Source: a virus
Lineage: Duplodnaviria; Heunggongvirae; Uroviricota; Caudoviricetes
Virus record (IMG/VR): IMGVR_UViG_2740892369_000014
Length of the DNA: 27,818 bases
Direction: 5' to 3' (one strand)
How positions within the stretch are numbered: the stretch's first letter is position 1; the number at the start of each line of letters is the position of its first letter. Position numbers: made by a program. Positions 9,001-12,000 of the stretch are shown here, one piece after another.

Positions 9001-12000
9001 TACCCGCACGTTACCTCCAGATGCGTTGCTGGAATGTGCGGGACGGACGCGGCGGGCGTTCGGAATAAAGGAGCCTGACGTAGATTATCCAGTGACGGTA
9101 GTCGAGGCTAAGGGCTTTCTTAAACTCATACCCACGTCTGCGGTAGTTATGAATCAGCCATTCGGCCTGTTCTTCAGTGCAGGGATCGTGCTGATACCAG
9201 TCATATTTGAATGTGTGAGAACACCGCCCTTGCCTGCTGGCAGGGGCGATATCAGAATTGTGATGTTTGGTATTGTGCGCCATCGGTTTTCTCTGCTGGC
9301 GCAGCAGGTGCCAGTTGTTCAAGCTGGCGTGCGGCAATATTGTCTCTGATTTCTGTTGTCGTCAACAGGCAACGTGCTATCATCGAATGGTGTTCTATCC
9401 TACTCCGTGAGGTTTACCATGCGTACAACCCAACAATTCAGCATTACATTAACTAACGAAATGGCTGACATGGTGCGCGCCCGTGTGGCTTCCGGTGCCT
9501 ATGCTTCAGAAAGCGAGGTCATTCGTGAAGGGCTTCGCGCACTGAATGAGCGCGATAAAGCAATCGAAGCGTGGTTAACGCATTCAGCCGCCCCCTCTCT
9601 TGATTCTATCCGCGAAAATCCAAACAACGGACGCTCCATTTCACAGGTTCGCGCCGCGATTCGATCCGGGAAGTAATCTGCATGACATATGAAGTCATCA
9701 TTACTCCTGAGGCCGAACAACAAATAATCAACCTGCACAGGTATATAACGGAGAAAGCAGGGAACGTCATTGCTGACAATTATGCCAATGCGCTTCTTGA
9801 TTATCTTGATGGGTTTTCTACATTCCCGCATCGGGGCAATAAACGCGATGATATTCGCCAGGGGATGCGGGTAACTCATTTCCGCCACAGAACGATTATT
9901 GCTTTTGCCGTTGATAGCAGAAAAGTCTTTATTGTCGGTATCTATCATGGTGGGCAAAGTTATGAAACCGATTTCTTATAAACTTTTACCCACATCATTC
10001 CGGTGTTAGAATTAACCGTCCGCCCCCTCTCTTACTGGCGGATTCGTAGGCTATATAAATCAAAGATCCCGGCTCATGTTTATGTCGGGATCTTTTTTCG
10101 GCGATTTATCCCCAGCGGCAAATCGAATACACCACCAGCGCCACCGCCATCGCAATTCCTACCGTTGTGAATGCTTCAGGCCAGGTCATCGTAAAATATC
10201 CTCCACGCTTATCAGTCCGTTCCGCTCCAGATAACTCATCGCCTTATCCGGTAATTTGCAGTCTGGCTTCGCTTTCCTCAGTTGCCAGGTTAACTGCTTT
10301 ACCAGCATGGTTAACTCATCGACCAGACGCTGATATCCCACTGGTTTGTATTCATGCAATTTACCGGCTGGCTCTGCTGCCAGCGATACCAGTGCGATTT
10401 CCAGAACAGCAATATCCATCTTATATGTGCGGATGATGTCATGGTCGATTGTGCCCGGTATGCACAGTCTCTGTGTTTCAATAGTCTCCTCTGCGTGAGC
10501 TATTAACTGCTCTCTGGTAAAAGTCGTCATGCCGTAGCCCCTTCTTGATATTTTTCAAACCAGAACACAACTGGGTCAGATTTCATTTCAACCAATCCCA
10601 TACGAACCAGCGCTTTGCCTTTCCCGGACGCAAGGAATTCACGACGACCATCACTGATAATTCGCCGATAATCTTCCAGACTACTGCAATGCTTGTGCAG
10701 ATTGCATGGGTGGCATGCCGGAACCATGTTGGATATATCGTCACGTTCCTGGTGAAGCATATTTCCATCAAAACGAATGACCGGTTTTACATGGTCTGCA
10801 TGCCACTTTTCGCCAAGTTCGCAGCCGCAATAAGCACAGCGACCGCCGAACTTCATGCGCAGCTCTGCACGTTGTTTTTTCGTCAGTGCCATATCAGCTT
10901 TCCTTATACGGATTAATTTTATTGTGCAGTGTGCTGAACGACGCCCACACCACGTCGTTATACAATTCAATAACTGGCTCAATTATTTTCACGATAAACC
11001 AGACCAGTAATAGCGGGGGTATCGGTATCATCAACACGATAAATATAATGAGAAACAAAAATTCTGTCGCTCTACTTTTTCTCGGATATTCTTTTCTGAA
11101 TAATGTAGTCATTTCTTACCGCCCTTTCAGGCGGCCTCCTGATGTTTTGAGGGTGCAGAAATCCCTCCGGTTAAGGATTAAATTTTTAACTAAATTTAAT
11201 TATTCAGGCGCGATAAGCTGTTCCGCACAATCCAGCAATGCTTCTGTCGCTTCCTTAAGCGTTACTGTATCGCTATCATCCAGTCCTGCAACTTTTTCGT
11301 ACCTGACAAACGCCGCGCAAAGCTCGTTAAACAACCCCGCCCGTACTTCAGCCAGGAAAGCGTCGGTGGCCGGAGTTTCAGGAATCCGTCTCCTCATCCG
11401 TTCTATTGCATGATTGAACCCGAAATCTTCAGCAAGAGATACGTCATCCATATTGTCATTGTCGTCCTCAATATCCCGTGGTTCTGGAATTGCAGACTTT
11501 ATTACCGCATTCTCCGCCGCCAGCGCCACAAGATTAGCTTTCAGCTCTGCAATTCGTTTGTTTTGGGCTTCCCGTTCATCCAGTAGTGCCAGCGCAACAT
11601 TTGGATTAAAAGCAGCAATAAATTCAGCGTTTGCATAAGCCTGAACATCTGTTTCAACCAGGCAGTTAACATGACATTCTGCAATTACGCCACCGGGCTC
11701 TCCTTTCCATTTTTGACAAACAAAAACTCCTGTTATATTCCCATGCTGATTGCCCGATGTATGCCCTACGATGTAGCATCCTTTAGTTGCTTTCTCTGCT
11801 GCTTCACGCAGCGCCTGATAGTCAATCTCGCTCATTCATCGCCCCACTCATCACAATATGCTTCGACCGGATTTTTTCCTGCTTCATAATCATCACGCCA
11901 TGCTTCAGCATCAGCAGCACTGCCACCACGTAACTCTGCATATTCCATTAACAGTTCATGCCATTCTTCAAAACTGACGCTGTATTTAGTTGAACCAAAA

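Follow-up and report, generated by a model that had tools for sequence, protein, structure and literature searches.

The DNA considered here is a stretch of 27,818 nucleotides from a virus of the Caudoviricetes (IMG/VR record IMGVR_UViG_2740892369_000014), called the window in what follows, and the subject is a parD-parE toxin-antitoxin (TA) pair that it carries among the genes of a lambda-like prophage. ParD-ParE complexes with solved structures are available from Caulobacter (ParD1-ParE1, 3KXE), Mesorhizobium (ParD3-ParE3, 5CEG and 6X0A), Pseudomonas aeruginosa (ParDE, 6XRW), Mycobacterium tuberculosis (ParDE1, 8C24) and Vibrio cholerae (ParD2-ParE2, 7R5A). Like these systems, the pair in the window is a two-gene operon with the antitoxin first, its antitoxin has a ribbon-helix-helix N-terminus, and the model of its toxin combines a helical hairpin with a three-stranded sheet; unlike them, it belongs to a close family that is confined to Enterobacterales and borne by prophages, and its toxin has only 13-24% identity with theirs.

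A ParE-fold toxin on a lambda-like prophage of enterohaemorrhagic Escherichia coli is also known from paaR2-paaA2-parE2 of the O157:H7 prophage CP-933P (PMC8630535; 5CW7, tenth in the structural ranking of our toxin model). That system has three components, one of them a CI-like regulator of its own and another a short antitoxin with no DNA binding, and it lies in the immunity region, whereas the pair in the window has two components, a ParD predicted to bind DNA, and a place in a slot that is occupied by hok in other prophages and marked by a DUF968 gene. Membership in the paaR-paaA-parE group was rejected, with only two genes between promoter and terminator and an immunity region ∼8 kb off that holds a HigB/helix-turn-helix (HTH) pair instead; a sequence search of the PDB gave no sequence-level match to paaR2-paaA2-parE2. 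PfiT/PfiA of Pseudomonas Pf4 (9W3A) and ParESO/CopASO of Shewanella CP4So (PMC8706911) are likewise prophage systems with ParE-fold toxins, but they differ in antitoxin family or host phage, and the identity to PfiT is ∼16%; ParESO/CopASO is linked to prophage maintenance.

As for the location, a close parallel is the Qin prophage of E. coli K-12, with the order ydfT(Q)-ydfU(DUF968)-rem-hokD-relE-relB-ydfV. This order bears out the initial annotation, which had put relBE and hokD of Qin at the equivalent position, and the alignment that it had proposed as a check agrees: window 7963-9300 matches ydfU plus ∼300 bp at 84.8% identity, and homology ends just before the cargo. The Qin genes hokD/sok and relBE are TA modules, as is parDE, and they occupy the same slot upstream of a block formed by a small open reading frame (ORF), the DUF968 gene (ydfU) and Q. 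However, hok/sok is a type I system (RNA antitoxin) with a membrane toxin, RelE is an mRNA nuclease, and both follow the direction of the phage genes, to which parDE runs antisense; reading against the neighbors is, therefore, a property of the parDE cassette and not of the slot. For Qin, Ramisetty and Santhosh 2016 (as cited in PMC6379469) describe relBE as inserted secondarily at hokD.

P2 and P4 are established examples of prophages with hotspots (PMC9122126, PMC9519451). The slot described here is similar in that conserved phage genes surround a short locus whose cargo is swapped among known and unknown defense and TA systems; it differs in belonging to lambda-like phages of the DUF968/RusA/Q lineage of Escherichia and Shigella, and in having hok/sok as its default cargo. 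Literature searches, in a searchable literature that is incomplete, found no paper describing the hok/DUF968 slot as a hotspot.

Regarding the genes themselves, a complete parD-parE pair on the plus strand between minus-strand genes, as first annotated, is supported by Pfam and NCBIfam matches, by the predicted fold and the order of the genes, by purifying selection, and by the presence of both partners in every homologous locus. The 85-amino acid (aa) antitoxin matched Pfam PF03693 (ParD_antitoxin) with an E-value of 1.6e-7 and 32.1 bits (cut-off 21), and NCBIfam TIGR02606 ("ParD family antitoxin") with 53.8 bits (cut-off 46.2); the solved ParD chains 3kxe_C, 7ycv_A and 7b22_A matched it with E-values between 4e-4 and 2.5e-3, and the matches of solved ParD chains to its residues 3-51 extended up to 5.6e-3. 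In a cross-genus alignment, residues 1-53 were near-invariant and residues 54-85 variable, as expected for a DNA-binding N-terminus followed by a toxin-binding C-terminus. The two genes are separated by 5 nt and run in the same direction, antitoxin first, and parD lies directly upstream of parE in this orientation in E. coli, Yersinia, Salmonella, Enterobacter and phage ArgO145. PHROG families labeled "antitoxin" and "toxin" matched the pair at 1.7e-56 and 2.4e-43, and RefSeq holds the same two ORFs as WP_001260977.1 and WP_000220601.1, with the NCBI names "ParD family antitoxin" and "RelE/ParE family toxin"; thus, the pair is already annotated. A side observation in parD is an exact 14-nt direct repeat, CCGCCCCCTCTCTT, present at 9588-9601, where it encodes AAPSL, and again at 10020-10033 in the 3' element; its chance occurrence is ∼3e-4 by our estimate, and it may have been left behind by a second copy of parD or by a recombination event.

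The 99-aa toxin matched PF05016 (ParE_toxin) over the full profile (1-89 of 89) with an E-value of 4.5e-10 and 40.4 bits (cut-off 23); the NCBIfam scan gave no model match for it. Its close homologues are few and come from Enterobacterales only, apart from one in Desulfovibrio: an exhaustive search returned 1,145 representatives at E-values up to 1e-3 and only 2 at E-values up to 1e-30. The conserved core reads FP.RGNKRDDIR.G.R.THFRHRT.IAF in the alignment. The AlphaFold2 model (mean predicted local distance difference test score of 83) consists of a strand, a two-helix hairpin and a three-stranded sheet, and each of the best 21 Foldseek matches among solved structures, all with E-values of 1e-3 or lower and TM-scores of 0.66-0.73, is the toxin chain of a ParDE-type complex. 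Among them are 5ceg, 6x0a, 6xrw, 7ycs, 8c24, 5cw7, 7r5a and 3kxe, and the organisms represented are Mesorhizobium, Pseudomonas (ParE and PfiT), Pseudoalteromonas (PrpT), M. tuberculosis, E. coli O157 (ParE2), V. cholerae and Caulobacter. RelE, YoeB, YafQ and HigB structures rank below them, with TM-scores of 0.39-0.59, and the toxin is thus predicted to have a ParE-type fold, nearer to the solved ParE toxins than to the RNases RelE, YoeB, YafQ and HigB. ParE toxins are gyrase poisons and not enzymes; because of this, the suggestion that missing catalytic residues would reveal an inactive ParE is ill-posed and does not apply. As for selection, the ratio of nonsynonymous to synonymous substitution rates (dN/dS) is 0.05-0.16 for ParD, and for ParE dN is 0.18-0.32 with saturated synonymous sites; judged from these substitution rates, both genes are under purifying selection across genera.

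The control region was compared in an upstream alignment of six regions from four genera, namely E. coli, an O157 prophage encoding Shiga toxin 2a (Stx2a), Yersinia, two Salmonella loci and Enterobacter. Its invariant blocks are GTCGTCAA at 9358-9365 in the −35 region, TGCTA at 9375-9379 in the extended −10 region and the leader at 9386-9404, while the remainder diverges. This conservation at the same position across genera is the real support for the promoter-like site, in which the two hexamers of the initial annotation, TTGTCG and TATCAT, are both present, although they are separated by 16 nt and not by the 17 bp given there. The GTTG-N4-CAAC palindrome reported with them is also present, and longer, as CTGTTG-N4-CAACAG, but taken by itself it lacks significance; the window contains 0.41 perfect inverted repeats of 6 bp with spacers of 0-8 nt per 100 bp, and the palindrome was rejected as a statistical signal. 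It is only partly kept in homologues, and it is a candidate ParD operator by inference only. The conserved leader is, on sequence grounds, a candidate for a second operator or a leader element, and its GAGG ribosome-binding site (RBS) precedes the parD ATG by 7 nt. Next to these elements, a predicted promoter-like site was noted on the minus strand at 9336-9365 (TTGACG at 9365, 18 nt, AATATT at 9336); it stands back-to-back with the parDE promoter, shares the palindrome with it, and points toward the small ORF, DUF968, RusA and Q genes.

At the other end, a terminator had been placed after parE, and a perfect 10-bp stem (10062-10071 with 10086-10095), a 14-nt loop and six T at 10093-10098 are found there, forming a hairpin at 10062-10095 that a simple terminator scanner missed because of its long loop. 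The 3' element also holds a promoter-like site at 9985-10012 (TTTACC, 16 nt, TAGAAT, with TG). About 96 bp of this element occur beside a Fic/Doc cassette in another locus (L071) and alone in one genome (H120, NZ_AP042500.1), hence they are not specific to parDE; the 3' element is better seen as a shared element of the slot end than as a part of parDE, and is possibly a bidirectional terminator. It has no Rfam family, and Rfam gave no RNA family in or beside the parDE cassette, either in the whole window at the gathering threshold or in 9250-10300 at E-values up to 5. In the GC profile, the cassette shows no compositional break.

The boundaries of the slot are exact to the base. On the DUF968 side, the homology shared with Qin of K-12 and with four further E. 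coli prophages stops at 9329-9333, and on the opposite side homology to hok-type prophages restarts exactly at 10105, within the stop codon of a 27-aa ORF named orf27. The junctions of parDE, 9333/9334 and 10104/10105, are those of the hok/sok cassette in other prophages, where 483 bp of hok/sok lie between them; one such locus (L019) has the order flank-hok-orf27-114aa, and its 114-aa gene is 100% identical to that of the window. Since the flanks and junctions are the same and neither hok nor rem nor relBE occurs anywhere in the window, parDE is an allelic replacement of hok/sok. Large cargos enter just inside a 49-bp terminator segment that is retained at the left flank; parDE replaces that terminator too. 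The pair had been placed next to the DUF968 gene, which is approximately right, but the small ORF (9011-9283 or 9011-9337, depending on the start) intervenes. One IMG/VR locus (L029, UViG_2778261530_000003) has three tandem copies of ∼31 bp, GCTGGCGCAGCAGGTGCCAGTTGTTCAA, immediately before the parDE cassette; slippage between the GCTGGCG repeats found at this junction is their probable origin.

The contents of the slot were surveyed in a sample of 80 + 21 + 7 loci, which is not a census. Its largest part consists of the 80 IMG/VR viral contigs with the closest DUF968 genes, 75 of which were informative: hok was found in 68 (∼90%), parDE in 3 and other cargo without hok in 4, while relBE was in none of the 75. 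The hok loci comprise 27 with hok alone, 21 with rem and hok, 9 with a short extra segment and hok, and 11 with large extra cargo and hok; in the sampled complete E. coli genomes, the slot held hokD or another Hok-family gene in 7/7. The extra cargos of the IMG/VR loci include Rosmer RmrA/RmrT (6e-105 and 5e-25), an M78 peptidase paired with an HTH protein, a restriction enzyme of NgoMIV type together with a C5-methylase (6e-127), a Fic/Doc toxin preceded by a small ORF, an insertion sequence (IS) element and unknown genes. Among species representatives, Rosmer occurs in Escherichia albertii, a RelA/SpoT-domain protein (PADLOC candidate PDC-S33, 2e-104) in Escherichia ruysiae, KwaB of Kiwa (3e-159) in another locus, and the Qin-type arrangement rem-hokD-relBE-ydfV in E. 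coli and Shigella. With conserved flanks and a variable cargo enriched in TA and known defense systems, the slot is a hotspot, and the earlier suggestion of a conserved position near DUF968 with exchanged cargo is supported by the base-exact flanks and the varied contents.

Uncharacterized cargo occupies slots such as those of L084 and L087, consisting of 298-aa and 97-aa proteins with a 130-aa lipoprotein-like ORF in L084, and of a 153-aa coiled-coil/transmembrane protein in L087. The 298-aa and 153-aa proteins, the only ones of these that were scanned, had no Pfam or PADLOC match, and both cargos are candidates for unidentified defense or TA functions.

Concerning the extent of the slot, its left flank was found at 9,088 places in 4,535 of 5,426 complete E. 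coli genomes; in the same 5,426 genomes the hok cassette had 10,894 places, not all of them in this slot, and relBE had 1,283, none of them below 99% identity. Upstream of the more distant DUF968 genes (56% identity or lower) of Enterobacter, Buttiauxella, Kosakonia, Phytobacter and Symbiopectobacterium, neither hok nor TA cargo is present and, from the reading of translated ORFs, candidate methyltransferase-like ORFs stand there instead; this restricts the hotspot to the Escherichia/Shigella lineage.

The parDE module was found at 382 places in 371 of the 5,426 complete E. coli genomes, all chromosomal, and it occupies only ∼4% of DUF968 slots. Copies are at least 99% identical in 193 of the 371 genomes, and both genes are annotated in every one of the 35 sampled E. 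coli places that cover at least 84% of the module. The full-length module was found in 328 complete E. coli genomes, and the junction of parDE with the DUF968 side was likewise found in 328. The RefSeq record with the two annotated ORFs matches window 1-22100 at 99.99% identity, within a lambda-like prophage in the chromosome of E. coli O103 str. RM8385, and identical copies of the parDE segment occur in O26, O103 and further Shiga-toxin-producing strains.

Outside this slot, the inducible Stx2a phage ArgO145 carries window 9336-11000, right flank included, at 99.3% identity in its early-left region, beside an anti-repressor gene. The pair of Yersinia lies close to SieB and the repressor, in the early-left region. 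That of Salmonella adjoins the gene for the Q antiterminator and has on its other side a variable block with Bro-N and Ail/Lom genes among its contents, and that of Enterobacter is part of an integrase island containing IS elements. The pair reads against the neighboring phage genes in every phage context seen, although this constant antisense orientation, over ∼4 independent contexts, is suggestive only. The Stx2a prophages of O157:H7 keep the promoter and an intact 85-aa parD (86% DNA identity), but parE is cut after 14 nt, and after the stub come a 90-aa ORF resembling a lipoprotein and an orphan HTH gene resembling HigA, as in L091 (6535WT, NZ_CP089032.1, 3989-5050). This truncated junction occurs in 42 genomes, and the orphan ParD could neutralize the ParE of a co-resident prophage.

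Table 1. Coordinates of the parDE cassette, its elements and the adjoining genes in the window
Feature	Position	Strand	Description
Exchangeable cassette	9334-10104		promoter, parD, parE and 3' element; allelic alternative to the hok/sok cassette
Inverted repeat CTGTTG-N4-CAACAG	9353-9368		overlaps the −35 element; candidate ParD operator
Sigma-70-type promoter-like site	9356-9383	+	TTGTCG 9356-9361, 16 nt, TATCAT 9378-9383; TG in extended −10 position
Conserved 5' leader GAAT.GTGTTC.ATCC...	9386-9411	+	invariant columns of the upstream alignment; ends in RBS GAGG 9408-9411
parD	9419-9676	+	85 aa; ribbon-helix-helix antitoxin; PF03693 and TIGR02606
parE	9682-9981	+	99 aa; ParE-family toxin; PF05016
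3' element	9982-10104		second promoter-like site, small hairpin, terminator hairpin
Q-like DUF1133 gene	7052-7594	-	flanking gene
RusA gene	7591-7950	-	flanking gene
DUF968 (YdfU-like) gene	7963-9009	-	PF06147, E 8e-77; 84.8% DNA identity to K-12 ydfU; anchor for equivalent slots
Small ORF	9011-9337	-	RefSeq start 9283; 90-108 aa; phrog_1212; left slot boundary; directly upstream of the DUF968 gene
orf27	10104-10187	-	27 aa, hydrophobic; stop codon is the exact right slot boundary
114-aa ORF	10186-10530	-	flanking gene
HNH gene	10527-10982	-	flanking gene
Ea22 gene	11200-11835	-	flanking gene

The genes around the slot (Table 1) place it within the prophage. The plus strand carries a repressor-like gene and the minus strand cro-like, YdaT, O-like and P genes, followed after P by DUF1627, DUF977, Ea22, DUF4014, HNH, the 114-aa ORF, the small ORF, DUF968, RusA and the Q-like gene; this arrangement identifies the minus strand as the early rightward operon, and parDE sits within its nin-equivalent part. 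The small ORF (phrog_1212) has no Pfam family, and it is present in 79/80 IMG/VR loci and 7/7 sampled E. coli genomes; K-12 Qin has an unannotated stretch homologous to it between ydfU and rem. The ATG of orf27 overlaps the TGA of the 114-aa ORF, an arrangement of translational coupling, and orf27 has no family match and is intact in the 12/12 related loci checked. PMC4118853 describes DUF968/YdfU as a fusion between a protein of the Orf(NinB) family and an HNH domain. Elsewhere in the window, a second type II TA pair lies beside the immunity region on the minus strand, with a HigB toxin at 17905-18207 (PF09907, 4.8e-33) and an HTH antitoxin at 17543-17902, and Rfam at its gathering threshold detected the small RNAs STnc100 at 4543-4715 (minus strand, 104.7 bits) and DicF at 19475-19526 (plus strand, 75 bits), together with three tRNA genes at 5488-5736 (minus strand), downstream of the Q-like gene.

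Regarding function, parDE is quite probably a self-contained type II ParD/ParE cassette that behaves as a moron of a lambda-like prophage, with addiction as its most likely role and, possibly, phage interference. It has a promoter-like site and a terminator hairpin, stands between phage genes, and is present in some relatives while others have hok/sok; its gene orientation sets its transcription against the early rightward operon of the phage. HokD and an ImmA/IrrE gene are listed among the morons of the E. coli LF82 prophage Tritos (PMC9928086). By analogy with the family, the pair would be expressed in the lysogen from its own promoter, which ParD would repress through its ribbon-helix-helix domain with ParE as co-repressor, and ParD would bind and neutralize ParE through its variable C-terminal part. 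If ParD synthesis stopped, the labile antitoxin would decay by proteolysis and release ParE, which, again as in the family, would poison DNA gyrase; the DNA would break, the SOS response would be induced, and the cell would stop growing or die. Loss of the prophage segment would be penalized in this way, and competing phages might also be hindered, as proposed for other occupants of the slot. A gyrase-poison TA system, ccd, activates the SOS response and resident lambdoid prophages (PMC10899753), so that in a host rich in Stx phages the effects of free toxin could exceed growth arrest. As for origin, the cassette most likely arrived by homologous recombination in the conserved flanks between mosaic lambda-like phages and not by site-specific insertion.

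Several points weigh against this account. In 1.7 kb, a scan returned 3 promoter-like sites where shuffled sequences would give 2.7, so that by count the promoter match is no better than chance, and the palindrome proposed as operator is both statistically unremarkable and only partly conserved. With the nearest solved toxins only 13-24% identical, gyrase is assigned as the target through family membership alone. The loss of parE in the O157:H7 Stx2a prophages suggests that the toxin is dispensable, or selected against, in some lineages. Literature searches by protein accession found no experimental study of the pair, and PADLOC (PADLOC-DB 2.0) returned no model match for ParD or ParE at E-values up to 0.01, leaving a defense role without direct support.

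The latter result bears on the alternative that parDE is primarily an anti-phage module (abortive infection or competitor exclusion), in which infection by another phage would shut off host transcription or degrade ParD, and the freed ParE would stop the infected cell; the prophage would then retain it for the reason that makes its relatives retain Kiwa, Rosmer or restriction-modification systems at this position. The slot is shared with validated or candidate defense systems (Rosmer, KwaB, restriction-modification and PDC-S33), this ParDE clade is found almost exclusively in accessory sites of prophages, and hok/sok is reported to exclude T4 (Pecota and Wood 1996, as it appears in the reference list of PMC11364771). 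However, sharing a slot with defense systems is guilt by association, and neither a PADLOC model nor, in the literature searches, any report of phage defense by ParDE speaks for it; as the primary role, this is rather unlikely. A broader proposal joins the slot and the pair: the slot would be an unrecognized defense hotspot of the lambda-like prophages of Escherichia and Shigella, on a par with those of P2 and P4, ParDE one of its defense cargos acting by abortive infection or competitor exclusion, and the antisense orientation would couple the pair to early transcription, with read-through upon induction silencing parDE and freeing ParE. This proposal is doubtful as a whole; if it were true, the uncharacterized cargos of the slot (298 aa and 97 aa in L084, 153 aa in L087) would be candidate new defense systems.

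A further alternative is a toxin with a target other than gyrase, such as a ribosome-dependent mRNA nuclease like RelE or HigB, or one directed at replication or phage production, as some ParE-like toxins are reported to be; the name ParE would then apply to the fold only. PF05016 spans the whole RelE/ParE superfamily, the NCBI name is "RelE/ParE family toxin", the invariant basic strand rich in His and Arg (R63, H66, R68, H69, R70) resembles nuclease active sites, and the top structural matches include PfiT and PrpT, whose biology is reportedly not classical gyrase poisoning. Against this, the best 21 structural matches are all of ParE type, with RelE-type folds clearly lower, and the partner antitoxin is a ParD according to a curated equivalog-level model. 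In addition, hhalign of the toxin with K-12 RelE gave a probability of 0.5%, in an alignment too weak for residue equivalence that stops before R81 and Y87 of the RelE catalytic set (K52, K54, R61, R81, Y87), and in which the C-terminal RelE segment containing these two residues has no counterpart in the toxin. These weaker fold scores and the low profile probability disfavor a RelE-like nuclease, and a target other than gyrase is, overall, unlikely. Finally, a decaying or neutral passenger that hitch-hiked with the Ea22/HNH/114-aa block in recombination and has no current function here is very improbable. In its favor, the same right flank accompanies the pair in ArgO145, parE is deleted in the O157:H7 Stx2a prophages, and only ∼4% of DUF968 slots hold the pair. 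Against it, both ORFs are intact and strongly constrained across genera, the promoter-like site and leader are conserved, and the copies of 193/371 genomes reach at least 99% identity, both genes being annotated wherever rows were sampled.

In conclusion, the gene pair is an ordinary, already annotated and uncharacterized member of a known family, to which it adds one more prophage-specific clade, while the slot, base-exact and with its cargo swapped, is the comparative result of more use in practice and of modest novelty. If ParE poisons gyrase, its release would lead to the SOS response, and in bacteria that also carry Stx phages this could affect prophage induction and toxin production. As a base-exact exchange site with ∼9,000 occurrences among 5,426 complete E. 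coli genomes, the slot could serve as a source of new defense or addiction systems, as the P2 and P4 hotspots did, and its swaps form a natural set for testing what such modules do for a lambda-like prophage.

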